Assembly: GCA_963708075.1 (NCBI GenBank)
Contig: OY970194.1
Location: 800,001 to 864,000, forward strand
From: Sedimentisphaerales bacterium
Lineage (GTDB): Bacteria; Planctomycetota; Phycisphaerae; Sedimentisphaerales; Anaerobacaceae
Length of the DNA stretch: 64,000 nt
Direction: 5' to 3'
Shown here piece by piece: positions 3,967 through 28,419 of the stretch. The translations under genes were made by a program, and so were the position numbers. The notes beneath the pieces are model-generated. The model searched no databases. It was given only the letters and a program-made list of their open reading frames with translations, and was not told the DNA's origin. Numbering within the stretch: the stretch's first letter is position 1; the number at the start of each line of letters is the position of its first letter.

Positions 3967-4065
3967 AAGGGAGGATGAAGGTGTAACGGCTGTTTGCGTG
4001 TTCGGTGGGGAGCGGGGATCCTGGAATTATCCAGCGGCTCATGTTGGGATAGACCGAGGACAGGC

Positions 4066-5865: not shown

Positions 5866-5918
5866 ACGAACCGGCAGAACGAAGTTCGATGATCTTCAGT
5901 CAAGAGAGTACGTAGCCT

Positions 5919-7304
5919 ATGCCTGAGCAAAAACCGCAGATCCTTCTGGCCGACGACGAAGCCACGTTCCGCGAGACCTTCACCAAGGTTCTTGAAGAGG
6001 AAGGGTTCGCCGTAACGGCGGTCTGTGACGGCCGCGAGGCGACGGCCGCCATCATGAGGCAGCCCTATGCCGTGGCCATCCTGGATATCCAGATGCCTGG
6101 AAGTGATGGAATCAGCGTCTTGCGGGAGATCACGGCGATTCGGCCCCAGACGCGGACCATTATGGTGACCGCCTATGGAACCGTGGAGATGGCCGTCGAA
6201 GCCATCAAGCTCGGGGCCTGCGATTACGTGATGAAACCGGTCAACTTCGATGAAATGCTCACGAAGATCCGTCAGCACCTGCGCTACGTGGAGCTGGAGG
6301 CGGAGAACCAGAAGCTCCGCGATGAGTTGAACGGGCGTTTCGACATCAGCCAGATCATCGGGGAAACGCGGGTCATGAAACAGGTCTTCGAGACCGTGCG
6401 CAAGGTCGCGCCGACCCGCAGCAACGTGCTGATCACGGGTGAGAGCGGGACAGGCAAGGAGCTTGTCGCGCACGCCATTCACGCGCTGAGCACGACCAAT
6501 GGCGGCCGGTTCATCGCCGTCAACTGCAGCGCGATTCCGGAGACACTGCTCGAGAGCGAGTTGTTCGGCCATAAACGAGGCAGTTTCACCTCCGCCTTTG
6601 AGGACAAAAAAGGACTCTTTGAGATGGCTCGCGGCGGGACGTTGTTCCTCGACGAGATCGGCCATATGTCGCTGGGCTGCCAGGTCAAGCTGCTCCGTGC
6701 GGTGGAACAGAGGCAGATCCTGCCGGTGGGCTCGACGACACCTGTCGACATCAACCTGCGTCTGATCGCGGCGACGAACCGGGACCTTATGAAGGAGATC
6801 AAGGAAGCTCGATTCCGGGAGGACCTCTTCTATCGCCTGAATGTCGTCGGCATCCACCTGCCTGCCCTGCGCGAGCGGCGTGACGATGTTCCTCTGCTGG
6901 TCCGGCACTTTGTGAAAAAGTACAACGCCGAGATGGGCAAGCACTGCACGGGAGTCAGCGAGGACGTTATGAAGATGCTCACGGATCATGATTGGCGGGG
7001 CAATGTCCGGGAGTTGCAGAACGTGATCGAACGAGCCGTGATATTTGCCGAGAGCGAGGTCATCGAGCTTGCGGATATCGGCTTCACCGGTTCCGACGCT
7101 ACGGCCGATGTGGAGGACCAGGAAGGTTTGCAGGCTTCGATCCGAGCGTACGAGAAAGAGCAAATCTACAGAGCGCTTGCCAAGTATGATTGGGACAAGG
7201 CCGAGACTGCAAAAGCGTTGGGAATAGGAGTCTCGAGTCTGTACAGGAAGATCGATGAACTTGGGATCGTCAATCGCAGAGAACGGTCCCGGAAGATGGA
7301 GTAG
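5919..7304 (+). CDS. sigma54-dependent NtrC/AtoC-family response regulator
   Basis: REC domain (LADDE, DIQMP), GESGTGKE, GSFTSA (GAFTGA-like loop), LFLDEIG, WRGNVRELQN and a Fis-type HTH. Confidence 0.95.
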   Translation: MPEQKPQILLADDEATFRETFTKVLEEEGFAVTAVCDGREATAAIMRQPYAVAILDIQMPGSDGISVLREITAIRPQTRTIMVTAYGTVEMAVEAIKLGACDYVMKPVNFDEMLTKIRQHLRYVELEAENQKLRDELNGRFDISQIIGETRVMKQVFETVRKVAPTRSNVLITGESGTGKELVAHAIHALSTTNGGRFIAVNCSAIPETLLESELFGHKRGSFTSAFEDKKGLFEMARGGTLFLDEIGHMSLGCQVKLLRAVEQRQILPVGSTTPVDINLRLIAATNRDLMKEIKEARFREDLFYRLNVVGIHLPALRERRDDVPLLVRHFVKKYNAEMGKHCTGVSEDVMKMLTDHDWRGNVRELQNVIERAVIFAESEVIELADIGFTGSDATADVEDQEGLQASIRAYEKEQIYRALAKYDWDKAETAKALGIGVSSLYRKIDELGIVNRRERSRKME

Positions 7305-8612: not shown

Positions 8613-8642
8613 GGTCTGCTCATTCAAAACCCAGGTAGGCTT

Positions 8643-9794: not shown

Positions 9795-11189
9795 ATGATA
9801 GGCAAGATTGCCAAGTACATAGTGCAGACGCCCAGACTGGCGATTCGTACTTTCGGCCGGCTGAACTGGCCGGTACGGATCGCCGTTGTGCTGGCGGGCG
9901 TCGGTGTGTTCAGCGTGACAGCGATTGAGGTGACCGGGCAGCCCGGGTTCTGCAATTCGTGCCACATCATGAATTCATACTACGACAGTTGGACTCACTC
10001 GAGCCACGCCGACGTGAAGTGCCTCGAATGCCATCTGCAGCCGGGCTTCGCCGGACTCATCAAGGGCAAGATCAACGGCCTGGCCCAGGCCATCGACTGC
10101 GCCGTAGGGCGCGTCGGCACAAAGCCCAATGCGACAATCAAGGATGCCTCCTGTCTGCGATCGGAGTGCCACAGCACGAGCGAACTGGCGGCCAAGCCCA
10201 TCGACTGCAACGGCGTTCGCTTCGCTCACGACAAGCACATCGACAAAGTCGTCGACGGAATAAAGATCACATGCGGGACCTGCCACAGCCATTTTGAAGG
10301 GAACGACCATTTCAGCGTGGACCACAACGCGTGTTTCGTGTGTCATTTCCTCGGCAGCAGCGAGACCGCCGGCCGACCGGTTAAAACCAACTGCCAGGGC
10401 TGCCACAAAGTGCCGGACCAGGTCATCCGGCGGGGCTTTGTCAAAATCGACCACAGCGACTTCGTATCCTACAAAGCCAGTTGTGAGGAATCCTGCCACA
10501 AGCGGGAAGTCCGGCCGGCAAGCCAAGTGGAGGATACGGTCTGCCTGAACTGCCACGATTTTGGCAAACCGGCGGATGCAAACAGCCTGGAGCTGCATGA
10601 AAGCCACACGAATGGTGAAAAGGTGCAGTGCTTCGCCTGCCACGGAAAGGTGCCGCATGGCCAGACCCGCGTGGAGTCGGTGTCCGCGATGATGGATTGC
10701 CAGAGCTGCCACAGCGATACCCACCAGGTCCAGCGCACGATCTACAGCACGGAGCATCCCATGCAGCCGGACAAGACGGATCGGGTACTCAGCCCGATGT
10801 TCATGACCCACGTGGAATGTACGGGCTGCCATATCGAGAGGACGGCAAAAGCGTCGGGCATGCTCGACAGTTTCGGGACAGTCGCCCGGATGTCGCCTGC
10901 CGCGTGCGATCGGTGCCACGAACCGGGGACCGGACAGAAGTACGTGCCGTTCTGGCAGGATCGGATCAAGAAACTGTATGAGCAGGTGGAACGACACATC
11001 AAAGAGGCCGAGGCGCTCGCCCTCGCTCAGGCTGGCGAAGAAAAATCGCGGGACTTCAATCTCCGGGTTCAGCAGGCCAGGTCCATCCTCGATTCGATCC
11101 GCTATGACGGCAGTTGGGGCGTTCACAATTTCAAGTACACCGAGGCCCTGCTTCTCGAAGCAGACAAGATGGTTTCCAACGGGAGTTAG
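9795..11189 (+). CDS. Membrane-anchored NapC/NirT-like multiheme cytochrome c (12 heme motifs)
   Basis: N-terminal TM helix, then QPGFCNSCHIM...SSHADVKCLECH. 10 CxxCH plus CLRSECH and CEESCH. C-terminal helical DGSWGVHN motif. Confidence 0.88.
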   Translation: MIGKIAKYIVQTPRLAIRTFGRLNWPVRIAVVLAGVGVFSVTAIEVTGQPGFCNSCHIMNSYYDSWTHSSHADVKCLECHLQPGFAGLIKGKINGLAQAIDCAVGRVGTKPNATIKDASCLRSECHSTSELAAKPIDCNGVRFAHDKHIDKVVDGIKITCGTCHSHFEGNDHFSVDHNACFVCHFLGSSETAGRPVKTNCQGCHKVPDQVIRRGFVKIDHSDFVSYKASCEESCHKREVRPASQVEDTVCLNCHDFGKPADANSLELHESHTNGEKVQCFACHGKVPHGQTRVESVSAMMDCQSCHSDTHQVQRTIYSTEHPMQPDKTDRVLSPMFMTHVECTGCHIERTAKASGMLDSFGTVARMSPAACDRCHEPGTGQKYVPFWQDRIKKLYEQVERHIKEAEALALAQAGEEKSRDFNLRVQQARSILDSIRYDGSWGVHNFKYTEALLLEADKMVSNGS

Positions 11190-11191
11190 AC

Positions 11192-12343
11192 ATGTGCGTA
11201 CGTAAGGAATACGGACGAATACGGGCGGCAGTGGCTGTAGCCTTCTGGATTGCGGCGTTGACTGTCACCGCGACGGCTCAACCTGCCAGTCCGCACCATC
11301 AGTTCCTGGGCGGGCCGTGGGAGGTCCTGGTCAAGCTGGGACTCGAGGGTGCCGGAGTACGCATCCCCGTGTCCATCGCGGATGAGAACAAGCCGCAGTC
11401 GCTCGGAACGGTGACGCCGGTGATGGGAACGCCCATGAAGGTGAAGCTCGAACGATACCTGCCGGACATGAAGCGGGAAACCACCGCCGTCGCAGACCCC
11501 AATGGCGGGCCGGTCGCAAAGCTGTCGTTGCGGGGCGAGAATCTCCAGCAGGACATCTGGCTCTCCGCTCGCGACCGTGAGAGGCAATCCGTATCCGCCG
11601 CCGTCGGGAGCGTCGCAATCCGGGAACTCCCTGGGTCGGTGGATGCTTCCATCCTGCAGGAGTTGACGGAGCCGGAGGTTGTGGGCGTCCTGCTCGTCTG
11701 GCTCTCGGAGACGAGCCCTCCGCTTGCATACACGGTCAAGCCGGGCAAGGTAATAGCGCTGCCGGGGTCTCCCTGGAAGCTCTCGATCACCCGGTACGTT
11801 CCGCACTACAGCATCGACCGGCAGACGAAGGAAGTGACCAGCCAGTCGGATAAGCCTGAAAACCCGGCGGTCGAGATCCGTGCACAGAACGACACGCAGG
11901 ACATCCGACAGTGGCTGTGGTCGCAGTTCGCGATGTCGCCGCACAAGACGCAGCAACTGCCGTTTCGAGTCAGGTTCCTGGATTTCCACGTGAGTGCCGC
12001 CGCGAGCCGATACCTTCTCGTGGTGGCGCCGGGCCCGCGATCTCACTTGCTCTACCTGAAGGATGGCAAGAAGCACATCGAGCCGGTCGAGATGGGCAAA
12101 CGGCATCTTTTCGACGACAAGCGGTATTCTTTCGCCGTCGAAGAGGTGCGGCCGGAGGCGAGGCTCGAAACCGCTTGGCAGAATGGCTCAGAGGTGCTCC
12201 TGCATCCTGCGATTGTGGCAACGATTACGCAAGGCAACGCCGACGAGCAGGTCGTGCTGGAGTTGGGTCAGCCGTTCCACCACAGGACAACTACGGGGAC
12301 TCTTGTCGTGCTGTACAGGCATGTGCCGGACGCTGTGAGATGA
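11192..12343 (+). CDS. Secreted/periplasmic hypothetical protein, beta-rich, no heme motifs
   Basis: Signal peptide ending ATA-QP. Recurrent (N/H/G)P(A/V)-hydrophobic motifs are loosely reminiscent of ResB periplasmic domains. Starts 2 nt after the upstream stop. Confidence 0.7.
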   Translation: MCVRKEYGRIRAAVAVAFWIAALTVTATAQPASPHHQFLGGPWEVLVKLGLEGAGVRIPVSIADENKPQSLGTVTPVMGTPMKVKLERYLPDMKRETTAVADPNGGPVAKLSLRGENLQQDIWLSARDRERQSVSAAVGSVAIRELPGSVDASILQELTEPEVVGVLLVWLSETSPPLAYTVKPGKVIALPGSPWKLSITRYVPHYSIDRQTKEVTSQSDKPENPAVEIRAQNDTQDIRQWLWSQFAMSPHKTQQLPFRVRFLDFHVSAAASRYLLVVAPGPRSHLLYLKDGKKHIEPVEMGKRHLFDDKRYSFAVEEVRPEARLETAWQNGSEVLLHPAIVATITQGNADEQVVLELGQPFHHRTTTGTLVVLYRHVPDAVR

Positions 12344-12422
12344 TCCGCAAATCGAGATACATCCTGTTGTTCACGGACGGGAGGACAAGTACCCGTGCAA
12401 GAGGCACGTGAGGAGTACTGAT

Positions 12423-13781
12423 ATGACAGGTGTCTGGAAACGCAATTGTATGGCTGCCGCTGTGCTGGCTGTGGTCTTCGTGGCTCCGGCGTGGGGCGTA
12501 GAGAAGCCGACCTCGTCGCAGAAGACGTGTGTCACGCAGGAGTGCCACGCGGACTACGCGAAGAAGCCGTTCGTCCACGGGCCGACCGGCCTGGGCAACT
12601 GCGCGAGTTGTCATGACGAGGTGGATGCGAAGGCCCACACGTTCAAGCTCGCTCGGGAAGGCCGGGACCTCTGCGAGTATTGCCATCTCGACCAGTCCAC
12701 GAAAAAGCATGTCCACGAGCCTCTCAAGACGGGTAAATGCACCGATTGCCATGACCCGCACAGCAGCGAGAGCAAGGCAATGATTCACGAGAAGACCGTG
12801 GCGGAGCTTTGCGCAAAATGCCACCAGACCGGCAAGGACGTTCAGTTCATGCATGGCCCGGTGGCGGTCGGCGAGTGCACGATCTGCCATGCTTCGCATA
12901 GCGCGGACCGACCCAAGCTGCTCGTCGACGAGCCGGTGAATCTGTGTTTCTCCTGTCACGTGGTGACGAAAGACGAGCTCTCGCAATTCGAATTTGTGCA
13001 CGAGCCGGCGAAGAATGATTGCATCGGATGCCACAACCCGCACGGGGCCGACCATGCGAAAATGCTGAAAGCCGACGCGCCCGACCTGTGCTACTCGTGC
13101 CATGAGGACATCAAGAAGCTGGCCGAGACGTCGAAGCATAAGCACACAGCAGTGACGGAGAAGGACGGCTGCCTGCATTGCCACACACCCCACGCATCCA
13201 CAGTGCAGTTCGTCCTCAAGGACGCCCCGATGGCCCTGTGCGAGTCGTGCCACGACAAGCCGGTGACGACGGAGGACGGCAAGCCTGTCGCATCATTCAC
13301 CGCGCAGGTCAAAGACAAGAAGTCGCCTCATGGCCCGGTTGCGCAAAAGAACTGTGCCGGCTGCCACTCTGTTCATGGCAGCGAGCATTTCCGTCTGCTG
13401 ATCAAGGACTATCCTCAGGCGTTCTACGCACCGTTCAGTGTGGACAAGTACGGACTTTGCTTCAGTTGCCATCCGGAGAGTCTGGTGTTGACGGAACGCA
13501 CCTCCGAGTTGACGGACTTTCGCAACGGGGATCGGAACCTGCACTATGTGCACGTGAACAAGCAGCGTCAGGGCCGGACCTGCCGTGCGTGCCACGCGAC
13601 CCACGCGAGCGACCTGCCCAAGCACATCCGCGAGAGCGTGCCTTACGGCGTGTGGAACCTGCCGATTCAATACCAAAAGACGGACACCGGCGGCGGTTGC
13701 CAGCCGGGCTGCCATCAACCGTTCGACTACGATCGCCAATCGCCTGTCACATATCCTGTGTTGCCGGGTCCGCGACGTTGA
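12423..13781 (+). CDS. Periplasmic multiheme cytochrome c, paired-CxxCH type (15 heme motifs)
   Basis: AGGAG RBS, signal peptide AWG-V. 13 CxxCH plus CVTQECH and CQPGCH. Repeating HxP...CxxCHxPH...LCxxCH units. Confidence 0.93.
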   Translation: MTGVWKRNCMAAAVLAVVFVAPAWGVEKPTSSQKTCVTQECHADYAKKPFVHGPTGLGNCASCHDEVDAKAHTFKLAREGRDLCEYCHLDQSTKKHVHEPLKTGKCTDCHDPHSSESKAMIHEKTVAELCAKCHQTGKDVQFMHGPVAVGECTICHASHSADRPKLLVDEPVNLCFSCHVVTKDELSQFEFVHEPAKNDCIGCHNPHGADHAKMLKADAPDLCYSCHEDIKKLAETSKHKHTAVTEKDGCLHCHTPHASTVQFVLKDAPMALCESCHDKPVTTEDGKPVASFTAQVKDKKSPHGPVAQKNCAGCHSVHGSEHFRLLIKDYPQAFYAPFSVDKYGLCFSCHPESLVLTERTSELTDFRNGDRNLHYVHVNKQRQGRTCRACHATHASDLPKHIRESVPYGVWNLPIQYQKTDTGGGCQPGCHQPFDYDRQSPVTYPVLPGPRR

Positions 13782-13850: not shown

Positions 13851-14849
13851 ATGCTTGTCCTGGCGGCCTGCCTCGCATCACCGCTGGCGGGACAGGAGGG
13901 TCTGCGTCGAATCCGTGTGGGCGATACGATGCCCGAGTTCTCCCTGTCCGACGTCAACGGAACGACCGTGCACTATGGCGGCAAGGAGCCCCGGCCCATG
14001 GGCATTGTGATCCTTCAGGCCGGGCAGAGCCAGCGTGAACGACTGGTGGCGGACATTGAGGCCCTCGTTCAGAAACTCAGATTGGAGGGGGCCGTCTTCG
14101 ATTGTCTCGGGGTGATGACCGGCCCCGGCACAAGCGAATTTCTGCGTTCGCGCGACGCTGACGGAAGGGCGGCACTGCCGATATTCGCGGACCCCAATTT
14201 TGCGTTTTGGGGTCAGCTCGGCGTCATCGCGACTCCGACGGCCGTGGTCGTAGGGGCGGATCACAAGGTACAGTGGATCAAGGCCGGGTACGGGTATGAT
14301 TTCGTGGCCGGTTTTCACGCTCAGTTGAACAAGGCCCTTGGCCTGACGAATGTCACCGACGCATCCGTGCACGTGGAGACCCTGGCGAACAGTTCCGCCC
14401 GAGCCCGCCGGGATAGGCACATCCAGTTGGCAAGGACGCTTGCGAAGAAAGGACGGCTGGAACCCGCGATTGCAGAACTCGAGAAGGTGCGTGAGCTCGA
14501 GCCCAACGCCGTGGATGTTGCTCTGGAGCTTGGTGAAGTGCTGTGCCGGGCCGGCAAGAATGAGGCGGCGCTGAAGATCGCAGCCCAGGTCAAGGCCGAG
14601 TCGGACCCGGACAAGGCCCGTGCGATGCTGATCTCAGCGTGGGCCAGGCGGCAGATGGGCGACCTCGAAGCTGCGGCAGCGATTCTGACCAAGGCCCTGG
14701 CTCTCGATCCGGAATCGTCCCGCATTTTGTACGAGTCAGGCAAAGTGCATCAGGCCCGGGGAGAGTCCGAGAAAGCATTGACCTGCTACCGCCGGGCTCT
14801 GGCGGGGATTTTCGGCGAGGATGACGTAAGCAATGCCTCTCGCAAGTGA
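13851..14849 (+). CDS. Exported redoxin-fold (no CxxC) plus TPR protein
   Basis: VGDTMPEFSLSDVNG, LGVIATPTAVVVG and C-terminal TPR repeats. The real start may be the out-of-frame ATG 13810 (see findings). Confidence 0.8.
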   Translation: MLVLAACLASPLAGQEGLRRIRVGDTMPEFSLSDVNGTTVHYGGKEPRPMGIVILQAGQSQRERLVADIEALVQKLRLEGAVFDCLGVMTGPGTSEFLRSRDADGRAALPIFADPNFAFWGQLGVIATPTAVVVGADHKVQWIKAGYGYDFVAGFHAQLNKALGLTNVTDASVHVETLANSSARARRDRHIQLARTLAKKGRLEPAIAELEKVRELEPNAVDVALELGEVLCRAGKNEAALKIAAQVKAESDPDKARAMLISAWARRQMGDLEAAAAILTKALALDPESSRILYESGKVHQARGESEKALTCYRRALAGIFGEDDVSNASRK

Positions 14850-15001: not shown

Positions 15002-15017
15002 TGGCATGAGATTTGCT
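15002..15017 (+). promoter_or_regulatory. sigma54 (-24/-12) promoter
   Basis: TGGCATGAGATTTGCT has 1 mismatch to TGGCACGNNNNTTGCW, with exact GG-N10-GC spacing. Confidence 0.8.
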
Positions 15018-15183
15018 CAAGAATGGTGGGCGCGGTGTCTACACACGGTGCAGATGCATGGTGGTGAAGGCCACCGGCATGGGCATGGGCGTGGAGAAGT
15101 GGTAGAGTCTTGCCGGGATATGGCAGCTTGAATCAGCCAATCGGCATGTAATTGATGTATCAGTGGAACAGGAGGAGTGAGAA

Positions 15184-15804
15184 ATGCAGAACAGGTGGTT
15201 AGTACGAGTGGGCTTGGGCGTGATCGTTTCGAGTCTGTTGACGACACCGGCGGTGTGGGCGGCGGCCGCACATTCCGATCTCGTGGGCTGCGACGGCTGT
15301 CATGTGCCGCACAACGCGGACCAGCTTCCCGGTGTGCCGCTGTGGAACGGCAATGAGACGACGGTGACGTTCACGATGTACTCCAGCAAGACGTTCCAGG
15401 CGACCATTGACGGTCAGCCGAGCGGCGCGTCGAAACTCTGCCTCAGTTGCCATGACGGCGCGAACCCGAACTTCCTGTGGATGACGGATAACGAGAAGTT
15501 CGGGGCGGGCGAGTTGGCCAACAGCCACCCGGTTTCCTTCGTCTACGACTCCGCGTTGGCGGCGGCCGACGGGGCTCTGAAAGACCCGTCCCAACCCAGT
15601 ACGCTGGGTCGGACCATCGCCCAGGATCTGCTGGACGGGGACGGCAAACTGCAGTGCAACAGTTGCCATGATGTGCATACTTCCGGCGTGGGCAGGGCAT
15701 TGCGTGGCTACAACTACGGTTACGAGACCATCCAGAATGACGATGGCTCGAGTTCCCAAATGCACCACGGTCCGGAATTGTGCCGCATGTGCCACCTGAA
15801 ATAA
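15184..15804 (+). CDS. Secreted tetraheme cytochrome c, OmcE-like (candidate nanowire subunit)
   Basis: Strong RBS AGGAGGAG, signal peptide, then H...CDGCHVPH...PLWN...FTMYSS...SKLCLSCHDG...SHPVSF...CNSCHDVH...LCRMCHLK*. Confidence 0.8.
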   Translation: MQNRWLVRVGLGVIVSSLLTTPAVWAAAAHSDLVGCDGCHVPHNADQLPGVPLWNGNETTVTFTMYSSKTFQATIDGQPSGASKLCLSCHDGANPNFLWMTDNEKFGAGELANSHPVSFVYDSALAAADGALKDPSQPSTLGRTIAQDLLDGDGKLQCNSCHDVHTSGVGRALRGYNYGYETIQNDDGSSSQMHHGPELCRMCHLK

Positions 15805-15902
15805 AAGTCATCACACCAACCAGGTAAGGGGAGTGTGATCGTTAGCCCGGGATTGCCTGGCAAGTCCGGCGACGGGGATGGTGTGTCCGCTTTTAGGGAT
15901 AA

Positions 15903-15918
15903 TGGCGGGTCATTTGCT
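15903..15918 (+). promoter_or_regulatory. Second sigma54 promoter
   Basis: TGGCGGGTCATTTGCT with GG-N10-GC, about 38 bp before ATG 15956. Confidence 0.6.
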
Positions 15919-15955
15919 TCTAAAGGGGGCCCGTCGCATTGGACGAAAAACAGGT

Positions 15956-17401
15956 ATGTCGGCTAACAATCCATCACTCTGGAGGGGCATGGTCCTTGCC
16001 GTCGCATTGGCGGCAGCGATTCTTATCGGCGGATGCGGCTCTGCCCAGGAGCGACCGGACGCGAGCACCCCGGTCTTCTTTCCTTCCGGGCCGGAGAAAC
16101 CCCGGCTGCAGTTCCTCACCTCGTTCTCGGGCCCGGCCGATCTGGGCGCCGCCGGCGCCAGCGGGTTCGAGAAGTTCGTCCTGGGCGAGGAGGAAGAGAA
16201 AGAGGGAATAGCGACCCCGTACGGCTTGGCCGTCTTCGACGGCAAGCTCTATGTCTGCGACGTCGGCAAGAGGCGCGTCGAAGTGCTCGATCTCAGGAAA
16301 CGGTCCTTCGGGTACATGACCGAGGACCGGCGGCTGATGAATCCCGTGAACATCTGCATCGAGCGAGACGGGACGAAGTACGTGGCCGACCCGACGGCAG
16401 GAGCGGTTTTTGTCTTTGACGCGGGCAACACGTTGCAGGCGATCCTCGGCAAGGAACTGCGGATCAGCCCGATCGACGTCGCCATCCGCGGACCGCACTG
16501 CTACGTCACCGACTTCGCCGGCAACCAGGTCGTCGTGATGGACAAGACGACGGGCAAGGAGATCCGTCGGATGGGCGAGCAGGGCGACGGCGAGAATCAG
16601 TTCAAGCTCATCAGCGATCTGACTTTTGGCCCGGACGGGGACCTCTATGTGACCGACAAGCTGAAAGCCAGGATCTTCGACTTCGATTCCTCGGGGAACC
16701 TCAAGCGGACGATCGGCCGCCTGGGCGACAACATTGACGAGCTGGTGCGGCCCAAAGGTATCGCGCTGGATCGCGACAGCCGGATCTGGGTGATCGACGC
16801 AGGCGCCTCCCTGTCGCCTTCCGCGTGGTCCACGGAAGTCGCGAAAATATACGACCCCCAGGGTCGCTTGTTGCTGTTCTTCGGCCGGCCTGGGAACGAG
16901 CCCGGGAACATGAACCTTCCGGCCAAAATCATCCTGGACTATGACCATGTCGACCTGTTCAAGCACCGCGCCGTGCGGGGGGCCGACATCAAATTCCTTG
17001 TGTTCGTGTCGAACCAGTACGGCCCGGCCAAAGTAAACGTGTACGGCTTCGGTGACTTTCCCGTTCCTGACAGATCGAAAGAGGTGACGCAAACGCCGCC
17101 TGTGGAAAAAAGTCCGCCGGCGGAATCGGTCCGTCCCGCGGAGCCATCGGCCAAGGCGGTCGCACCTCAGTCGGGGCAGCAGACCGGCGAAGCCCAGCGA
17201 TTGCAGCAGACCAGGACAATCGCCGATCTCTACTACCAGAGTATGGACCAGTATCGTGCCGGTCGGCTCGAAGAGGCCCGGTCGGGGTTCGTGAAAGTCA
17301 TTGCCAGCGGGCTGATCCCGCCTCCCATGGAGGAAACACTCAAAGGGTACATCAAGGACATCGATGGGCGGCTCGCCCGCCAGCGCAGCGGACAGCGTTG
17401 A
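15956..17401 (+). CDS. NHL-repeat beta-propeller lipoprotein with C-terminal TPR-like helical domain
   Basis: Lipobox IGGC, FFPSGPEKPRLQFL, NHL repeats (PYGLAV, PKGIALD...IWVID), a Pro/Gln linker and a helical tail. Confidence 0.88.
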   Translation: MSANNPSLWRGMVLAVALAAAILIGGCGSAQERPDASTPVFFPSGPEKPRLQFLTSFSGPADLGAAGASGFEKFVLGEEEEKEGIATPYGLAVFDGKLYVCDVGKRRVEVLDLRKRSFGYMTEDRRLMNPVNICIERDGTKYVADPTAGAVFVFDAGNTLQAILGKELRISPIDVAIRGPHCYVTDFAGNQVVVMDKTTGKEIRRMGEQGDGENQFKLISDLTFGPDGDLYVTDKLKARIFDFDSSGNLKRTIGRLGDNIDELVRPKGIALDRDSRIWVIDAGASLSPSAWSTEVAKIYDPQGRLLLFFGRPGNEPGNMNLPAKIILDYDHVDLFKHRAVRGADIKFLVFVSNQYGPAKVNVYGFGDFPVPDRSKEVTQTPPVEKSPPAESVRPAEPSAKAVAPQSGQQTGEAQRLQQTRTIADLYYQSMDQYRAGRLEEARSGFVKVIASGLIPPPMEETLKGYIKDIDGRLARQRSGQR

Positions 17402-17482
17402 TTGGCGGTGCGATGAATCTGAAATGGGAATGAAGGTGGCGTTCGCAGGGAGGCTACGATTGAGAATTTGGATGTCAAATGT

Positions 17483-18664
17483 ATGCGGCAGCCTGCGCAT
17501 TGCGATCCGGTGCGACTTCGGATGATCCTCATCCTGCTGGGATCAGGATTAGCGATGATGCTCTTGCTGCTGTCCAGTTGCGACGAAGTCGAACGCCACA
17601 AAGTGTTGACCTTCTTCTTCGATGGCGTTCCACCGCTGCAGACGCAGACGTCCGAGACGCAGGTAACGGCCCTGAAGGACAGCAAGCCGGGGGACATTGC
17701 GCCGGCAGGGGGCTGGCACGTTCACCCGCCGTTGAAGAACTGCGTCAACTGCCATGGCGATCAGCGGCAAACGGGTTTCTCCCGTAAGGTGCAGTTGGTG
17801 GCGCAGGTGCCCCAGTTGTGCCACAAATGTCATGACGAGTTTTCCACCCTGGAGTCCTGGGTGCACGGCCCGGTCGCGACGGGTGACTGCCTGGTTTGCC
17901 ACGAGCCTCACAAGACCAAAGCCGAATTCCTGCTCAGGAAGCCGGTCCCCGAACTATGCTATCAGTGCCATGAGGTCCAGGCGATTCGCATGGTCAAAAA
18001 CCACGACGGGGAAGCGTACTCATCCTGCACGGATTGTCACGATGGGCACGCGGGCGCGACCCGGAGCCTTCTGCGGCAGACGTTTCTGGAGAAGCCGGCG
18101 GGTCTGGAGTATCAATCCGAGATCCATCGCCGCAAGTATGAAGAGGCGGCCAGGAAAGCGAGGAGCGATCTGTTGCAGGGGCAGGATTTCCTGGCGTTCT
18201 CCGGCACAATCATCGAGTACCTCCAAGGCGGTCAACTGTGGCCGGCCAGGGCGTATCTCGAAGCCCTGATGAATAGTGACCTGATCATGGATTCCGAGAA
18301 ACCTCTCGTGGCCGATAGCCTGCAAAAGGTGATTGATGTGCAGACGAAGCCGCCAACGGAGCCCCAGGAAGGTCAGGAGCTTGAAGACCCGTCCAGGGAC
18401 GTCGGGGAATCGGCGGCCGCCGCACTCAAGGCCATTCGGGATCAAAGAAGCGAACAGGCCAGAAAGGTCGCCGAGCTCTACTATCGCAGCCTCCAGCAGT
18501 ACCGCGCCGGGCAACTTGTGGAAGCTCGGGAGGGCTTTCGTCAGGTTCTCGGTGCCAGTTCGCTGCCGGCGCCAATAAAGGAAACGGCTCAACAGTACCT
18601 CGACCAGATAGAGCAGGCGTTCATCCAGAAGCAGGAGCAGTCCGGCTGGCGTTTGCTGAAGTAG
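17483..18664 (+). CDS. Pentaheme cytochrome c lipoprotein with helical C-terminal domain
   Basis: Lipobox LSSC followed by LTFFFDGVPP. Heme motifs CVNCH, CHKCH, CLVCH, CYQCH, CTDCH. Start uncertain (17468-17522). Confidence 0.88.
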   Translation: MRQPAHCDPVRLRMILILLGSGLAMMLLLLSSCDEVERHKVLTFFFDGVPPLQTQTSETQVTALKDSKPGDIAPAGGWHVHPPLKNCVNCHGDQRQTGFSRKVQLVAQVPQLCHKCHDEFSTLESWVHGPVATGDCLVCHEPHKTKAEFLLRKPVPELCYQCHEVQAIRMVKNHDGEAYSSCTDCHDGHAGATRSLLRQTFLEKPAGLEYQSEIHRRKYEEAARKARSDLLQGQDFLAFSGTIIEYLQGGQLWPARAYLEALMNSDLIMDSEKPLVADSLQKVIDVQTKPPTEPQEGQELEDPSRDVGESAAAALKAIRDQRSEQARKVAELYYRSLQQYRAGQLVEAREGFRQVLGASSLPAPIKETAQQYLDQIEQAFIQKQEQSGWRLLK

Positions 18665-18705: not shown

Positions 18706-20787
18706 ATGGAAGAGACCGAATGTGGTCGGAATCAAGAAACTGAGCGTGTATTGAACCGAGCGAGCAATAAGGCAAGGCATGGCCCGGTAAAGGCATGGCC
18801 CGGCTACAGGGTCCTCGGAAGTGTGCTGTGTTGCGGGCTTGGTCTGATAATGTTGGGCGGCTGCAACGTGATCGTCCGGGGCCAGAAACGGCCTCTCGTC
18901 AAGAACCAGAGAATCCGCGGGGAACTCGAGACGGTCGTCGAGCATCGCGTGGATGAACGGAAAACGGGCGCCGATAAGCGTGAGAGTGAAAGCACAGTGT
19001 TTGAAGAACGGGCAAGAGTCAGGACCAGTGGTGACGTATACCATCCTGATTTCTTGAATTATGATGTCATGGTTGGGGCCGGGCTGGCTCAACAGAACAT
19101 CGAGTCCGATGATCTGTCCGGCTGGAGCACAGGGACTCTCGATGAATATCTCCTGTCCGCCCAGTTGTTGCGCTCCAAACCGTACACGGCCACCGTCAAT
19201 GCCACCAAGACGGAGGACTTGATTGCCCGGCAATTCCTGGGTCCGTTGCAGGCCGACCGCAAGAGTGAATCCGCGTCCCTGATTCTGCGCCCCGAGTCCT
19301 GGCCGATGTCATTTCAGTACAGCAGCAGCGAGACGAGCCAGGACGGCTTCGATCATCTTGCGTCGGACTTCTTTGCCCGCGAGGACGAACGCTTCCGATA
19401 CTCGGTCGATCACGATTTCAGCAAACTGTCGCACATCCACTTCGATTTTGACCGGACCGAGGCACGCCAGGAGACTGTAGGGGCCGTCGTCAACACAGAT
19501 ACGGACGCATACACGCTCTCGCATGATTACATGTTCGGCGAGGACGGGAAGCATCGCCTCGATTCCCTCTTCAATTACATCAACCAGAGCGGCTCGTTCG
19601 AGTTTGAGAACCTCCGCGCACAGGAGCGGCTGAGACTGCAGCACACGCCCAGCCTGCTCAGCAAGTACGATGTCCAGTACAGCAAACTGGAGCGAGAGGC
19701 ACTGGACAGCGAGCAGATTCGCGGCCAGGCGGGCATCGAGCACAGGTTGTTTGAGAGCCTGGTGACCGACTTGGACGGGTTCATCTCTGAAACCGATCTT
19801 GGGTCGGACGGGAAGCTTACGCAATACGGCGGGATCCTCGGCCTGAACTATCGAAAACTGAACCCGTGGGGCACCTTGTTCAGCAGCTACAGCGCCAGTA
19901 TCACTCGCAGCGACCAAACCGGCGGCGCCGGCAAAGGCTTCGTCGTCGGCGAAGCCCACATTGCCACTGACGTAGTCCCGATCGAGTTGGGCCGCACGAA
20001 TATCGATATCTCGACGATTCGCGTGACCTCCGCCCCCGGAAGCGGAGACGTGTTCCTGGAGGGGGATGACTACACGATCTCTCAAAGTAGCGGAAGGGTG
20101 TTCGTCAACACGATCGTCATCGGAGGCGTGGTGCCCCCGAACTTCACGGAGGGGCAGGAATTCTTCGTGGATTACGAGTTCTTCGTGGAGCCGGAGCGGC
20201 AGGAGGACACGTTCCGCCAGAGTTTCTCCATTCGTGAGCGGTTCAAGAATGGTATCTCAACGTACTACGGACTGCGCATGCAGGAGGAGACTGTAACCTC
20301 GACGATGGCCGACATCATCCCCGATGAGTATCTGGCCCATACGTTCGGCATCGACTATACGAACAAAGGCCTGTTCCTGCTGGCGGAGTACATGACGGAG
20401 GATTCCACGCTGATTCCCATGACCAGCACGAAGCTGGAAGGCCGATATCGGTGGCTGATCGGCCCCGCGACGACCGCCAGCCTGGGACTGACGAACCAGT
20501 GGCTGGAGTTTGAGGAGCCGGATGCCCGGGACGTGGACCTTTTCGAAGCCACCGCCGAGCTCTTCAGCCGATTGTCGGACAAGTACAGCATTTCCAGCTC
20601 GGTGGACTATCGTCATGAGGATGACACGCGATTCGGAATCACAAAGGGATTCCAGATTGACAACAAGCTTGAGTACCATTATCGGCAGTTCACTGCTACG
20701 ATTGGCGCCGAATTGAGTTTCCTGGAACGCCGCGATGACGAAATCGACAGTCTGTTCTTCTACATAAAAGCCCAACGGCGTTTCTGA
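18706..20787 (+). CDS. Large outer-membrane beta-barrel (porin of a porin-cytochrome conduit or exporter)
   Basis: Alternating amphipathic beta-strands throughout, terminal ...FFYIKAQRRF, lipobox-like LGGC and no heme motifs. Confidence 0.78.
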   Translation: MEETECGRNQETERVLNRASNKARHGPVKAWPGYRVLGSVLCCGLGLIMLGGCNVIVRGQKRPLVKNQRIRGELETVVEHRVDERKTGADKRESESTVFEERARVRTSGDVYHPDFLNYDVMVGAGLAQQNIESDDLSGWSTGTLDEYLLSAQLLRSKPYTATVNATKTEDLIARQFLGPLQADRKSESASLILRPESWPMSFQYSSSETSQDGFDHLASDFFAREDERFRYSVDHDFSKLSHIHFDFDRTEARQETVGAVVNTDTDAYTLSHDYMFGEDGKHRLDSLFNYINQSGSFEFENLRAQERLRLQHTPSLLSKYDVQYSKLEREALDSEQIRGQAGIEHRLFESLVTDLDGFISETDLGSDGKLTQYGGILGLNYRKLNPWGTLFSSYSASITRSDQTGGAGKGFVVGEAHIATDVVPIELGRTNIDISTIRVTSAPGSGDVFLEGDDYTISQSSGRVFVNTIVIGGVVPPNFTEGQEFFVDYEFFVEPERQEDTFRQSFSIRERFKNGISTYYGLRMQEETVTSTMADIIPDEYLAHTFGIDYTNKGLFLLAEYMTEDSTLIPMTSTKLEGRYRWLIGPATTASLGLTNQWLEFEEPDARDVDLFEATAELFSRLSDKYSISSSVDYRHEDDTRFGITKGFQIDNKLEYHYRQFTATIGAELSFLERRDDEIDSLFFYIKAQRRF

Positions 20788-20813: not shown

Positions 20814-21878
20814 ATGAAAATTCGACAAAGCGGCCAACGGAGATGCTCAGCAGGACTTGGGGTCCTTGTGGTCACGCTGCTTCTGGCAGGTGCCGGATGC
20901 GGCCCGCAGCGGCCCGCGCTCTTAAATCGGGCGGAGGCGACACTGGTTTGGCCCAAGCCGCCCGAGCAGCCTCGCATCAGGTACCTCGGAGCGGTGTCCA
21001 CGGAAGCCGACATGGAAAAGCGAGGCTCGCTGCTCGACGGCATCGGTGAATTGCTGTTCGGTGCCAAACCCATGGGCGTTCTGGTGTCGCCCTACGCGGT
21101 GGCCGTGGATCCGACAGGGGTCCTGTACGTGGCGGATTCCGCAGGTGCGGCCGTGCACGCGTTCAACCTCAGAACGCGCGACTACCGCCAGTTTTCCTCG
21201 CTGGGCAAAGAGGCCGGGCTCCAGAAGCCCGTCGCATTGACGACGCTGACCGATCGGGTGTACGTCGTGGACAGTGTCCGGCACGAGGTCTGTGTCTTTA
21301 AGAAGACCGGTGAGTTCGTTTTCGCCTTTGGACGGGATCAGCTCGAAAGGCCCGCCGGCATCGCCTGCCGACGTCCGGAAGGCACGATCTACGTGGCCGA
21401 TGCGGGCAACCATGCCCTTTATGTGTTCAGTCATGAAGGCCAGTTCATCCGGAAGATTGGGACGCGCGGGATCGACGCCGGTCAATTCAATTTCCCCACG
21501 CATCTTCACATCGATGAGGCGGGGCAGCTCTACGTGAGCGACACCCTGAATTACCGCGTTCAAGTACTCGGGCCGGACGACAGGTTCGTGAAAGTGTTCG
21601 GGGACCAGGGCGACCGGCCGGGCAATTTCGCCCATCCGTGTGGCGTCGCCACCGACCATGCCGGAAACATCTATGTAATTGACCGTCAGTTCGAGAATGT
21701 GCAGATCTTCGATCCGCAAGGACGCATCCTGATGGCGTTCGGTGAGGAGGGGAGTGATCCCGGCCAGTTCTGGCTGCCGGCAGGCATCTGTGTCGATGTG
21801 CATGACAGGATCTATGTGGCGGATTCATATAACAAGAGGGTTCAGGTGTTCGAGTTTCTGAAGGAAGGCGGAAAATGA
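20814..21878 (+). CDS. NHL-repeat beta-propeller lipoprotein
   Basis: Lipobox-like GAGC, LVWPKPPEQPRIRYL and multiple FxxPxGI/V...IYVxD...RVQVF repeats. Confidence 0.92.
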   Translation: MKIRQSGQRRCSAGLGVLVVTLLLAGAGCGPQRPALLNRAEATLVWPKPPEQPRIRYLGAVSTEADMEKRGSLLDGIGELLFGAKPMGVLVSPYAVAVDPTGVLYVADSAGAAVHAFNLRTRDYRQFSSLGKEAGLQKPVALTTLTDRVYVVDSVRHEVCVFKKTGEFVFAFGRDQLERPAGIACRRPEGTIYVADAGNHALYVFSHEGQFIRKIGTRGIDAGQFNFPTHLHIDEAGQLYVSDTLNYRVQVLGPDDRFVKVFGDQGDRPGNFAHPCGVATDHAGNIYVIDRQFENVQIFDPQGRILMAFGEEGSDPGQFWLPAGICVDVHDRIYVADSYNKRVQVFEFLKEGGK

Positions 21879-23527
21879 GGAAATGGCCCGCCAGGACGGC
21901 TGTGATATGGCTCGCGACGCTTGGAGTATCGGGCGCGTTGGCCGGCAGTGGCTCGATTCAGGGCACGCCCCACGACCTGTCCCCGGTCGCAGGCGGGGCG
22001 GCCTGCAGTTTCTGCCATACCCCGCACGGAGCCATGCCCGGCACTCCCCTGTGGAGCCACACGCTTTCCACGGCCGTCTATAAAATCTATGAAAGCTCCT
22101 CGCTGGAAGCGAGAGTCGGCCAGCCGACGGGCTCCAGCAAACTGTGCTTGAGCTGCCACGATGGCACAGTGGCATTGACGGAGACCATCACCGGCGGAAC
22201 CGGCGGCGCCTATATTTCTGCCGGGGGCGCCAACCTGGGGACCGACTTATCTGATGACCACCCGATCAGCTTCGTCTATTCATCGGGCCTGTCCGCTGAG
22301 GACTCCCAGATCCGGCCACCCGTCGGGTTGCCCGAGCCGCTGAAACTGGACCGTTCCGGCGAATTGCAGTGCACGACGTGCCACGACGCTCACAACAATC
22401 ACTACGGCAACTTCCTCGTGATGTCCAACACGGGATCGCAGATGTGCGTGAGCTGCCACGACCTGAACGGTTGGACCACGTCGGCGCACGAGAGTTCCGG
22501 TGTTCTGGTCGCCGGGGCCAGCGACCCTTACCTGCAGGAGGGGGATCGCGGAACCCTCGCGGAGGTCGCCTGTCTTGCCTGCCACAGGCCGCACGGCGCC
22601 GGTGGCCATGAAAGGCTCCTCCATTTCGCCCAGATCGAAGACAATTGCCTGAATTGCCACGATGGCATGGTGGCCGGCACGAACATCAAAACGGATATGC
22701 TCAAGCTCAGCCGGCACAATGTGTTCCAGTATCGAGACGTTCATGATCCCACGGAGGTGGCCTCCGCGGCGCCCATGCACGTCGAATGCGTCGATTGCCA
22801 TAATCCTCATGCCGTGCAGCGAGCCCTCGTTCAGCCTCCAATGATCCCCGGCGCCATGCAGAGCGTTTCGGGCGTCACCGTCACCGGCTCCGTGACGGCG
22901 CATGCCCAGTTTGGGTATGAAGTCTGCTTCAAGTGCCATGCCGACAACCCGGAGCGCCCTCTGTCCGACATCACGCGGCAGATCACCCAGACGAATACCC
23001 GCCTCGAATTTGAGCCGTCAGGACCCTCATTTCACCCGGTGGTATCGCCGGGCGTGAATCCGAATGTCCCGAGTCTGATCCCGCCAATGACTGTGGCCAC
23101 GGTCATCAATTGCACCGACTGCCACAGTTCGGATGCGACGTCATCGGCGAGGGGGCCGCATGGGTCCGTCTATCGGCCCCTGCTCGCGGATCGCTACGAG
23201 ACAGTGGACTTCACCCCGGAGAATAGCTCCTCGTACGCGCTGTGTTACCGTTGCCACAGCCGCAACAGCATTCTCGGCGACCAGAGTTTCGCCGGCCACA
23301 GCGAGCACTTGGAAAACGGGATTCCATGCTCGGCCTGTCACGATGCGCACGGCATTAACGCGTCCCAGGGCTCAACGACGAACAACAGCCACCTGATCAA
23401 TTTCGACGTGGTGATCGTTCGGCCGGACCCTGTCACAGGACGGCAGGTCTTCGAGGATTCGGGCGTGTTTCACGGCCAGTGCTACCTGTCCTGTCATGGC
23501 GAAAACCATTCTCCGAAGGGATATTGA
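21875..23527 (+). CDS. Secreted 12-heme cytochrome c with N-terminal OmcE-like tetraheme module
   Basis: SIQGTPHDLS...CSFCHTPH...PLWSH...SKLCLSCHDG...ANLGTDLSDDHPISF...CTTCHDAH...MCVSCH, then 7 more CxxCH and CYLSCH. Confidence 0.9.
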   Translation: MRKWPARTAVIWLATLGVSGALAGSGSIQGTPHDLSPVAGGAACSFCHTPHGAMPGTPLWSHTLSTAVYKIYESSSLEARVGQPTGSSKLCLSCHDGTVALTETITGGTGGAYISAGGANLGTDLSDDHPISFVYSSGLSAEDSQIRPPVGLPEPLKLDRSGELQCTTCHDAHNNHYGNFLVMSNTGSQMCVSCHDLNGWTTSAHESSGVLVAGASDPYLQEGDRGTLAEVACLACHRPHGAGGHERLLHFAQIEDNCLNCHDGMVAGTNIKTDMLKLSRHNVFQYRDVHDPTEVASAAPMHVECVDCHNPHAVQRALVQPPMIPGAMQSVSGVTVTGSVTAHAQFGYEVCFKCHADNPERPLSDITRQITQTNTRLEFEPSGPSFHPVVSPGVNPNVPSLIPPMTVATVINCTDCHSSDATSSARGPHGSVYRPLLADRYETVDFTPENSSSYALCYRCHSRNSILGDQSFAGHSEHLENGIPCSACHDAHGINASQGSTTNNSHLINFDVVIVRPDPVTGRQVFEDSGVFHGQCYLSCHGENHSPKGY

Positions 23528-23528
23528 G

Positions 23529-23927
23529 ATGAATAGAAAAACGATCCTGAAAATTGGCGTCGGAATCCTCGTCATTGGCGGGGGCATCGGCTATTTCATG
23601 TTCCAGGCGATGCAGTCGTCCTGGGCCTACTACTACTCAGTCGATGATTTTGCCGCCGCGGGCGCGGCCGGGCAAGGGCAGTCGTTTCGATTGGCCGGAC
23701 GAGTCAAGCCGGGAAGCATCGAGCGAGACCTGGAAAACGTGACACTGCGATTCACGCTCGCGGGCGCTCAGGCAGAGCTGCCCGTGCAGTACAAGGGTGT
23801 GACGCCGGACAATTTCGTCGAGGACCGGGAGGTGGTCGTGGAGGGCCGTCTGGCGTCCGGCGGCGTGTTCCAGGCCGACACCTTGATGACCCGTTGTGAA
23901 TCGAAGTACCAGGCGAAAGTAGAATAG
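23529..23927 (+). CDS. ccmE: Heme chaperone CcmE (CxxxY variant)
   Basis: N-terminal TM helix, RLAGRVKPGSI, YKGVTPDNF, VVVEG and TRCESKY. Confidence 0.93.
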   Translation: MNRKTILKIGVGILVIGGGIGYFMFQAMQSSWAYYYSVDDFAAAGAAGQGQSFRLAGRVKPGSIERDLENVTLRFTLAGAQAELPVQYKGVTPDNFVEDREVVVEGRLASGGVFQADTLMTRCESKYQAKVE

Positions 23928-23929
23928 AC

Positions 23930-25867
23930 ATGGCGGAATTAGGACAGTTTGCCCTGCGGCTCGGGCTGTTCCTGAGCGTCTACGCGATTCTCGCGGACCT
24001 GCTTGGCCGTTGGCGAAATCGCGGTGAATTGCTCGTAAGCACGCGCAACGCGACGATCGGCTGCCTGTTGTGCTTGACGGTTGCCGCCGCTGCGCTGTTG
24101 GTTCTCCTCGTGCAGGGTGACTTCGCTGTCAATTATGTGGCGGAGCACACCGCCCGCGCGCTGCCGCTTGTCTATAAACTGACAGCGTTCTGGGCTGGCG
24201 CGGCCGGGTCCTTGCTGCTATGGCTGTGGCTCCAGACCGGTTTCATCGTTTTTGCCTTCTCTAAGTGCGGCGGCGGTCTCGATCGATTTTGTGCCGGCGC
24301 CCGGGTGGCGGCGAACCTGGTGGCGGCGTTCTTCCTCCTGGTGCTGATTTTCGACAAGGACCCGTTCCGTACGTCGCTGACGACGCCCGGCGATGGTGCG
24401 GGGCTCAATCCGTTGTTGCAGCATCCGGCGATGGTTCTGCATCCTCCGGCGCTGTTCCTGGGCTATGCCGCGTTCGCCGTGCCCTTTGTGTGGGCGTTGG
24501 CCGCCCTGAAGAGAGAAGACTCGAACGGTTCTCCCGTCCTGTTCGATCGCGCGCGCAATTGGTCGCTGTTTGCCTGGATATTCCTGACTATCGGCATCGG
24601 CCTGGGGGCGTGGTGGGCCTACGAAGAACTCGGCTGGGGCGGCTACTGGGCGTGGGACCCGGTGGAGAACTCCTCCTTGATGCCGTGGCTCACGGGGACC
24701 GCTCTGCTGCACTGTGCGCGTACCTACCGGGCCAATTCCAGGACCGCGACGTGGTTCATGGTTCTGGCGATTGTGACGTTCAGTCTCTGCATCTTTGGGA
24801 CGTTCCTGACACGGTACGGCCTGGTCTCAAGCGTTCACGCCTTCCCCGATCCGGGACTGGGCATCCTGTTTATCGTGCTCCTGGGCATCATCGGGGCGGT
24901 CGCGGGGTTCTTATTCCTGCGCCGCTATTTACAGGACAGGTCGAAATCGCAAGCCGAAGGCCGCAGCGTCCGGTTTGTTGTGTGGAACAACTGGCTCATG
25001 TTGCTGCTGACCTTCGTGGTCCTCGCGGGCACGCTGTTCCCGTTCTTCAGCGGGCTCCTCAGCGACCACCAGATCACCCTGAAGCCCGAGTATTTCACGA
25101 AGATCACAGCCCCCGGCGGGCTATTGCTTCTGCTTCTGCTTGGCGTCTGTCCGCATCTGATCCACCATGGACTCGGCAGAAGTTGGCGAATCCTCGGCGC
25201 GGTCCTTGCCGGCGTAGCGGCGGCGCTGATCTGGGTGTTCGCAAAGAATCTGGCTGTTGCGTATCTTGTCGTCTGCGCGTTCGTCGGATTGAATCTGGCG
25301 GCGGATTTCGTACAGCGGTATATCCGTCGCCGTGCATCTGCCGGCGTGCGTACTCTGTCTCCCGTTTTTCGGTGGTATGGGGCGAGGATTGTGCACATTG
25401 GGGCGCTGCTGACTTTTGTGGGAATCGCCGGCTCCGGGGGATTTGACGTTGAGAAACAGGTCGCCCTCAGGCCGGGTGAACGGACCCAGGTCGGCAAATT
25501 CGAGCTTGCGTATGACGATCTGGATGCGAGTCACGGCCCTAACTTCACCGCCGTGACCGCTGCTGTGTCGGTGTACAAGGGCGACAAGCGGATCGGTGAG
25601 CTTTCGCCGGCCGTCGCCTTCTATGGGCGATCCGACAAGCGCACGAGCGAGGTGGACATCCGGCGGACCCTGGCGAGCGATCTCTACGTCGCCTTGACGG
25701 AAGTCGACAGCGCCACGAAGTTGATTAACCTGACGATCTTTATCAAGCCGCTGATCAATTGGATCTGGATCGGCAGTGGTCTGATGGTGGCTGGGGCAGT
25801 GCTCGTGATCGCCGCCGCGGTCGGTCGCGGGCGAGGCAATTCTCAAGAGGACATGGTTGAAGCATGA
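23930..25867 (+). CDS. ccmF: Heme lyase CcmF
   Basis: WAGAAGSLLLW, GLNPLLQHPAMVLHPP, WAYEELGWGGYWAWDPVENSS and SVHAF. Confidence 0.96.
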   Translation: MAELGQFALRLGLFLSVYAILADLLGRWRNRGELLVSTRNATIGCLLCLTVAAAALLVLLVQGDFAVNYVAEHTARALPLVYKLTAFWAGAAGSLLLWLWLQTGFIVFAFSKCGGGLDRFCAGARVAANLVAAFFLLVLIFDKDPFRTSLTTPGDGAGLNPLLQHPAMVLHPPALFLGYAAFAVPFVWALAALKREDSNGSPVLFDRARNWSLFAWIFLTIGIGLGAWWAYEELGWGGYWAWDPVENSSLMPWLTGTALLHCARTYRANSRTATWFMVLAIVTFSLCIFGTFLTRYGLVSSVHAFPDPGLGILFIVLLGIIGAVAGFLFLRRYLQDRSKSQAEGRSVRFVVWNNWLMLLLTFVVLAGTLFPFFSGLLSDHQITLKPEYFTKITAPGGLLLLLLLGVCPHLIHHGLGRSWRILGAVLAGVAAALIWVFAKNLAVAYLVVCAFVGLNLAADFVQRYIRRRASAGVRTLSPVFRWYGARIVHIGALLTFVGIAGSGGFDVEKQVALRPGERTQVGKFELAYDDLDASHGPNFTAVTAAVSVYKGDKRIGELSPAVAFYGRSDKRTSEVDIRRTLASDLYVALTEVDSATKLINLTIFIKPLINWIWIGSGLMVAGAVLVIAAAVGRGRGNSQEDMVEA

Positions 25868-25971
25868 TGAGCCTGAAATGGATTCTGTTACTTGTATGCG
25901 TAGCCCTAGTGGTCTGGCCGCTACTGGCAAAAGGCCAGGGGCAAGGCAATGGAGATAGGAAGTCATCGTGA
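25864..25971 (+). CDS. Small single-TM protein, 35 aa (not in ORF track)
   Basis: MMSLKWILLLVCVALVVWPLLAKGQGQGNGDRKSS*. ATGA overlap with the ccmF stop and GTGA overlap with the next start. Confidence 0.65.
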   Translation: MMSLKWILLLVCVALVVWPLLAKGQGQGNGDRKSS

Positions 25972-26951: not shown

Positions 26952-26955
26952 TTGC

Positions 26956-28415: not shown

Positions 28416-28419
28416 GCGA

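Follow-up and report, generated by a model that had tools for sequence, protein, structure and literature searches.

A short-arm OmcE-family tetraheme cytochrome from a planctomycete, and the case for a filament subunit

We analyzed a 64,000-nucleotide stretch of the genome of a Sedimentisphaerales bacterium (assembly GCA_963708075.1, contig OY970194.1, positions 800,001 to 864,000; hereafter ‘the window’) and, within it, the gene for a small tetraheme cytochrome c, P0001. Judged by its sequence, P0001 is a real OmcE-family tetraheme that lies inside a gene cluster of the omcE/Uet type. Sequence, predicted fold and gene context together suggest that it probably works like OmcE, as the unit repeated along a cytochrome filament of that type. 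The protein is not a new kind of nanowire, although it has traits of a subfamily.

Relationship of P0001 to OmcE

A sequence-only reading of this DNA had pointed to a likeness to OmcE, and this likeness was borne out by sequence, ligand-histidine conservation, fold and gene context. The check that the reading had proposed, a single-sequence search, gave significant similarity to OmcE over the full length (E=9.4e-13) rather than none, and profile searches against the OmcE structures gave E=2.5e-34 and 1.8e-35, with 9YUQ as the best match (1.8e-35). The 206 residues, the four CxxCH motifs (at C36, C86, C158 and C200 of the translated open reading frame, ORF) and the terminal LCRMCHLK* were also as the reading had described them. 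P0001 thus has four CxxCH motifs within the approximately 200-230 residues of an exported-type protein, the signal peptide being recognized by eye. Its structural model matches the OmcE fold, and H30, H43, H115 and H165 align in register with 7TFS and 9YUQ. Membership of the OmcS family was rejected, as P0001 has neither the six hemes, nor the approximately 400 residues, nor the fold of OmcS; the OmcS nanowire (PDB 6EF8; six hemes, 407 residues) is much further from it than OmcE is.

P0001 also differs in several respects from OmcE of Geobacter sulfurreducens (7TFS), a protein that stacks into electrically conductive filaments. The N-terminal His lies 20 residues before the first Cys in 7TFS and 6 in P0001; the segment past heme 2 is shorter in P0001, and the hairpin before heme 4 is longer and carries a His-His pair. 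The host is a planctomycete, unlike that of the Geobacter protein, and Ccm maturation genes adjoin the cluster, whereas resB/ccsB stand beside Geobacter OmcE. No glycosylation gene block like that of the Geobacter locus was found among the ORFs scanned downstream of P0001. The best profile match, the OmcE bundle of Desulfuromonas soudanensis WTL (9YUQ), has a long N-terminal arm; from its length, its 16 chains and its sequence, we take it to be the protein of PMC13712944. According to that paper, the bundling loops of D. soudanensis OmcE are not conserved among homologs, and because these loops vary, bundling of P0001 is not predictable.

The short arm is shared by a group of related proteins. 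Among 119 four-motif representatives, the commonest spacing from His to first Cys is 5 (47 representatives). In a quick IQ-TREE tree of 117 rows, from which 26 undecaheme-domain rows were excluded, a single branch separates the short-arm proteins from the rest (34/34 rows; Shimodaira-Hasegawa-like approximate likelihood-ratio test, 100), and with arm and last loop trimmed off, 32 of the 34 still group together (FastTree, support 97); 7TFS and 9YUQ are absent from both trees. All but two of the 33 named short-arm rows are labelled Planctomycetota. The loop before heme 4 has a median length of 23 in the short-arm proteins, against 18 in the others.

Heme ligands and a possible subunit interface

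In an alignment of P0001 with its 120 best-scoring homologs, the eight canonical histidines are found in 120-121 of the 121 rows; H30, H43, H115 and H165 are kept in 121, 121, 121 and 120, the single miss being a fragment. The spaced extra histidines noticed by the sequence-only reading are therefore present, but H194 and H195 had been overlooked, and the total is ten, not eight. H195 occurs in 107 rows (Tyr in 9 others, Phe in 2, Asn in 1) and H194 in 75.

P0001 consists of two ‘His...CxxCH-x-x-His...CxxCH’ repeats (paired CXXCH), and therefore the C-terminal heme 4 has no His downstream of it and His43 no heme upstream. Given these two repeats and a tail of only two residues after heme 4 (109/119 representatives), we infer that His43 and heme 4 form the interface. 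In OmcS, the crossing ligand is the His right after the first motif, which also entered into our choice of His43. We propose that P0001 would be exported by Sec and loaded with heme by the adjacent Ccm system, and that His43 of one subunit would then bind heme 4 of the next, producing a head-to-tail heme chain. In OmcE and OmcS, a His from the adjacent subunit ligates one interface heme, as described in PMC9473688, PMC12954529, PMC12307469 and PMC6584659.

Several points weigh against this proposal. The role of His43 as the crossing ligand is putative, as is that of its counterpart in OmcE. P0001 lacks 14 residues of the N-terminal arm relative to OmcE, which could alter the interface. Uet-like gene sets have been interpreted as porin-cytochrome conduits (10.1101/2022.05.06.490989 and PMC10734462). 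Finally, His195, conserved in 107/121 rows, lies five residues ahead of Cys200, a placement similar to that of His30 relative to Cys36. Capping of heme 4 within the subunit by His194/His195 is possible, although orthologs in the same kind of cluster have other residues at these positions.

If His195 did ligate heme 4 in cis, P0001 would be a cap or terminator with nine ligand histidines, which could join a chain through His43 and could not extend it. PMC13712944 describes a four-heme protein with nine His as an ideal chain stopper and predicts an anchor of this kind. The retention of His195 among close homologs fits this idea, as does the presence of a His at -5 from the last CxxCH in 15/33 short-arm and 0/55 long-arm loci. 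However, among the 17 closest loci, position 195 is His in 11, whereas the remaining 6 have Y, F, Q, Q, G and G there; five of these 6 occupy the same cluster position. Three loci with full clusters (L007, L010 and L011) have no extra His at all in the loop. OmcE itself carries a ninth His in the alignment. Moreover, the genome contains no other intact free tetraheme of this family that could be the major subunit: a second copy (L081:7357-7977; G000:C1:6459356-6459976), approximately 73% identical, with the same His, its own strict sigma-54 site and no cluster, is split over two frames: compared with four aligned homologs, it has an additional base close to codon 57, so that it is either a pseudogene or an assembly error. 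We consider the cap improbable.

The surrounding genes

The label ‘standalone’ that the earlier reading had given to P0001 applies to its domain structure only; the gene itself stands in a cytochrome cluster (Table 1). By motif count, pentaheme and undecaheme proteins are encoded downstream and 13- and 10-motif proteins upstream, and the 13-motif protein has a conserved non-canonical motif that brings it to 14 or more heme sites. Two NHL genes with lipobox-like motifs supply beta-propeller lipoproteins of the kind considered in PMC13712944. According to that paper, even the smallest omcE clusters never lack genes for OmcE, two multihemes, two propeller lipoproteins and a large barrel; the combination of barrel and propeller serves there as a filter for likely nanowire subunits. 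The P0001 cluster has the same minimal set of parts as the D. soudanensis-type clusters, with the barrel being a probable one. This 693-residue protein is located where the barrel gene would be expected but has no Pfam family; its Atlas look-alikes at 0.97, from Thermodesulfobacteriota and Pseudomonadota, are all unnamed, and a weak Porin_4 lead was present on 33% of one Atlas cluster at 0.87. Its identity as a barrel is the weakest link in the gene-context case.

Table 1. Features of the P0001 gene and its surroundings (window coordinates)
Feature	Coordinates	Strand	Basis
Histidine kinase and sigma-54-dependent response regulator, candidate activator	3994..7304	+	family scans
10-CxxCH cytochrome, NapC/NirT(NrfH)-like N-terminus, candidate quinol dehydrogenase	9795..11189	+	PF03264 E=5.4e-8; TIGR03153 E=2.7e-15, below cut-off
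Conserved hypothetical protein	11114..12343	+	no family found; syntenic in close loci
13-CxxCH paired-CXXCH cytochrome (14 conserved heme motifs), candidate periplasmic wire	12408..13781	+	family scan, alignment
TPR protein	13851..14849	+	Pfam
Sigma-54 (-24/-12) promoter-like site	15002..15017	+	single strict match in window
Ribosome-binding site AGGAGGAG, 6 nt ahead of ATG	15170..15177	+	sequence match
P0001, OmcE-family tetraheme cytochrome c, short-N-arm subfamily, 206 aa	15184..15804	+	sequence, profile, fold, tree
Probable Sec signal peptide, residues 1-26	15184..15261	+	by eye: basic N-region, hydrophobic core, AxA-type end; alignment conservation begins at H30
His30, distal ligand, 6 residues ahead of Cys36 (20 in OmcE)	15271..15273	+	121/121; aligns with OmcE N-terminal His
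CxxCH 1 and His43 (putative inter-subunit ligand)	15289..15312	+	invariant in alignments A1, A2
CxxCH 2	15439..15453	+	translation, alignment
His115, distal ligand	15526..15528	+	invariant in alignments
CxxCH 3 and His165	15655..15678	+	alignments
Extra His194-His195, end of predicted beta-hairpin preceding heme 4, not invariant	15763..15768	+	75 and 107 of 121; hairpin from model
CxxCH 4, two residues from C-terminus	15781..15795	+	2-residue tail in 109/119 four-motif representatives
NHL beta-propeller (NHL1), lipobox-like motif	15878..17401	+	Pfam; homolog in 71/80 loci
Pentaheme cytochrome, lipobox-like motif	17468..18664	+	family scan
693-aa heme-free probable outer-membrane beta-barrel	18706..20787	+	C-terminal Phe, amphipathic stretches
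Second NHL beta-propeller (NHL2), lipobox-like motif	20814..21878	+	Pfam
Undecaheme, 11 CxxCH and 1 CxxxCH, OmcE-like N-terminal four-heme domain, candidate anchor	21875..23527	+	profile, alignment
Cytochrome c maturation system I: ccmE, ccmF, hypothetical, ccmA, ccmB, ccmC-like	23496..29055	+	family scans

We also examined how often these partners accompany the tetraheme gene in other genomes, using the best 80 of at least 538 confirmed genome loci. NHL1 homologs were present in 71 of the 80 and barrel homologs in 57; the full set of NHL1, barrel, NHL2 and undecaheme was present in 48/80 loci (42/53 among those of at least 15 kb), with undecaheme matches below 300 bits discarded as tetrahemes or fragments. 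Seven of the 80 lacked all five partners, and two of these seven (L018 and L036) stop at the tetraheme gene; in genomes with stand-alone tetraheme copies, the barrel was located elsewhere in 4 of the 5 examined. These counts bear on whether P0001 might instead be a soluble periplasmic electron carrier or heme store, tied to the NapC-like quinol dehydrogenase and remaining in the periplasm. Its Sec-type leader without visible sorting signal, its small size and the NapC-like gene upstream are compatible with this role; however, the tight linkage is to barrel and NHL lipoproteins, whereas the NapC-like gene was found in only 14/80 loci, and the modelled fold is that of an extracellular filament protein. 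A periplasmic carrier is therefore highly improbable.

In the proposed filament, the barrel and the two NHL lipoproteins would secrete or mount the chain, and the undecaheme, the first domain of which has an equivalent of His43, could dock on its free heme-4 end. Residues 13-195 of the undecaheme match 7TFS (E=2.5e-23), and its four distal histidines H33, H51, H129 and H173 are present in 54/54 homologs, H51 being the equivalent of His43. We hypothesize that the undecaheme could grip the free heme-4 end of the filament and extend the heme chain into the barrel. A conserved non-canonical motif brings it to 12 heme sites, for which there are 16 conserved His; this surplus neither proves nor excludes the anchor role.

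The same parts invite another explanation. The Uet systems of Ca. Tenderia electrophaga and some Gallionella are described in 10.1101/2022.05.06.490989 and PMC10734462 as one conserved block of tetraheme, beta-barrel, two NHL proteins and undecaheme; as in the P0001 cluster, the block also has maturation genes and a TPR gene, a likeness drawn from the description of the parts. P0001 could then be a monomeric or short-oligomeric surface cytochrome on a barrel-undecaheme conduit, as UetA beside UetC and UetJ, adding one or a few units and forming no micrometre filament. By description, the cluster has the Uet-like parts (tetraheme, probable barrel, two NHL proteins and undecaheme), and the same arithmetic of histidines and hemes would suit docking just once on the terminal heme of a partner. 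Bacteroidota, Calditrichota and others commonly have this cluster too, and we found no filament report for them. Against this, both structurally characterised homologs polymerise, the Uet paper itself allows polymers, and the gene's own sigma-54 site and strong ribosome-binding site within the cluster, together with stand-alone extra copies that have their own promoter (L081, L004), fit a subunit needed in excess. We regard a docked cytochrome as clearly less likely than a filament subunit. Neither the peptidyl-prolyl isomerase UetB nor the c7 trihemes UetDEG nor the cupredoxin UetF was found among 30 window ORFs scanned against Pfam, and the window has no 3-motif ORF. Uet has been linked to electron uptake.

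Other observations in and around the cluster were as follows. An island of electron-transfer genes that includes it spans approximately 45 kb. Just ahead of the window, on the minus strand (L082:4623-14265), a second multiheme block encodes cytochromes with 24, 6, 8 and 9 motifs, together with an NHL propeller and a membrane protein that contains cytochrome b; two sigma-54 sites stand back to back there, at C1:796386 and 796422. Heme-synthesis genes occur nearby: one HemA-like and two radical-SAM ORFs, identified by eye (window 131-3815), and an AhbA-like siroheme decarboxylase (7921-8385; 134 bits, the cut-off being 140). The window also has an Rrf2 regulator (7331-7792) and a UroD-family gene (33476-34501). 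Elsewhere, strain ZRK34 (complete genome; L027:9881-11179) has two tandem short-arm tetraheme genes beside ccm genes, with barrel and undecaheme at other places; this genome, whose record is not labelled a metagenome-assembled genome, carries the parts, making the strain a possible bench system. L025:17371-18048, L044:9878-10558 and L080:16380-17057 encode five-CxxCH OmcE-like proteins with the added motif between hemes 3 and 4, which resemble the five-heme variants in PMC13712944, and L080 has four OmcE-like paralogs within one locus. P0126, P0129, P0150, P0237 and P0244 (459-1400 residues) contain two to four OmcE-like stretches and are possibly fused multi-subunit wires.

Expression signals

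The sequence-only reading had assigned P0001 a sigma-54 promoter of its own and a very strong ribosome-binding site. The promoter claim was sustained by a strict -24/-12 match, unique in the window against 0.07 expected; 7 of 100 shuffles of the window reach one match, and the whole 7.5-Mb genome has 23, this site among them. Among homologous tetraheme genes with enough flank, the strict pattern lies upstream of 7/83 (0.004 expected per region), and a looser pattern upstream of 14/31 short-arm and 1/52 long-arm genes (0.013 expected per region), where the loci are related and the counts hence not independent. The ribosome-binding site AGGAGGAG is likewise present; as an 8-mer it is no rarity in itself (5 occurrences in the window against 1.97 expected), and GGAGGAG stands at the equivalent place in L001 and L015. 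An intact stand-alone tetraheme copy in L004 has a similar upstream region. The promoter may let the subunit outnumber the products of the assembly genes, and the upstream kinase/regulator pair may drive it. At 14950-14962, 40 bases upstream of the sigma-54 site, is a candidate IHF site with one mismatch to the consensus. IHF sites usually lie in such a position relative to sigma-54 promoters.

Phylogenetic range and significance

The closest named records are labelled Planctomycetota, Phycisphaerae, Sedimentisphaerales or SG8-4, several being also tagged ‘Pirellulales’. Of 61 related genomes, 11 match P0001 (three solely via longer proteins) and 9 match the barrel. Tetraheme and barrel matches all fall in its own family (10/36 and 8/36), with none in the 24 genomes from other families of the order; the cluster is a patchy accessory system in the family. 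Beyond these, we found homologous clusters in records with the labels Bacteroidota, Calditrichota, Ignavibacteriota, KSB1, Hydrogenedentota, Verrucomicrobiota and Gammaproteobacteria. A word search for P0001 homologs returned 1,825 proteins, and 3,582 representatives matched at E<=0.001 in an exhaustive search by profile; both totals include other multihemes. One close short-arm homolog (60%; L016) comes from a 0.8-Mb genome that has no barrel match, and its contig, placed in a Woesearchaeota bin, is probably mis-binned.

PMC13712944 reports homologs of OmcE from Thermodesulfobacteriota, Pseudomonadota, Aquificota, Campylobacterota and Nitrospirota and mentions five-heme variants from diverse uncultured phyla; ‘plancto’ is absent from its main text, and its supplement and figure alignments could name more. 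Our search of the literature on OmcE or nanowires in planctomycetes or Sedimentisphaerales, which left most subscription papers outside its coverage, found no account of such a system in Planctomycetota. PMC11266412 describes the Sedimentisphaerales as strict fermenters, some families of which may reduce nitrate and sulfate. In the filament reading, electrons would most likely pass from the quinone pool to the NapC-like decaheme, then to periplasmic multihemes and an outside acceptor such as a mineral, humic matter or a partner cell. Quinol as the entry point is suggested by the NapC-like gene, a polyprenyl synthase (8565-9698) and an MqnA/D-family gene elsewhere. Outward flow is our best guess for this organotroph; the Uet clusters have been read as uptake systems.

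A bolder speculation, which we hold only tentatively, is that planctomycetes labelled strictly fermentative build nanowires from a distinct short-arm OmcE subfamily and that the filament end-piece, which the authors of the OmcE structure paper failed to find, is encoded in the cluster itself. With its invariant free H51, the OmcE-like domain of the undecaheme would bind the last subunit at its terminal heme and so wire the filament into the barrel, and the extra His before heme 4 may compete in-chain, limiting polymerisation until export.

If P0001 polymerises, OmcE-type nanowires reach Planctomycetota, beyond the five phyla named in PMC13712944, and if its homologs do so, the range also takes in Bacteroidota, Calditrichota, Ignavibacteriota, KSB1 and others. 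The start, stop and attachment of OmcE wires would become testable, with the undecaheme and its built-in OmcE domain as a concrete candidate. The polysaccharide-degrading Sedimentisphaerales of anoxic sediments and digesters would then be able to dispose of electrons outside the cell or pass them to partner cells.
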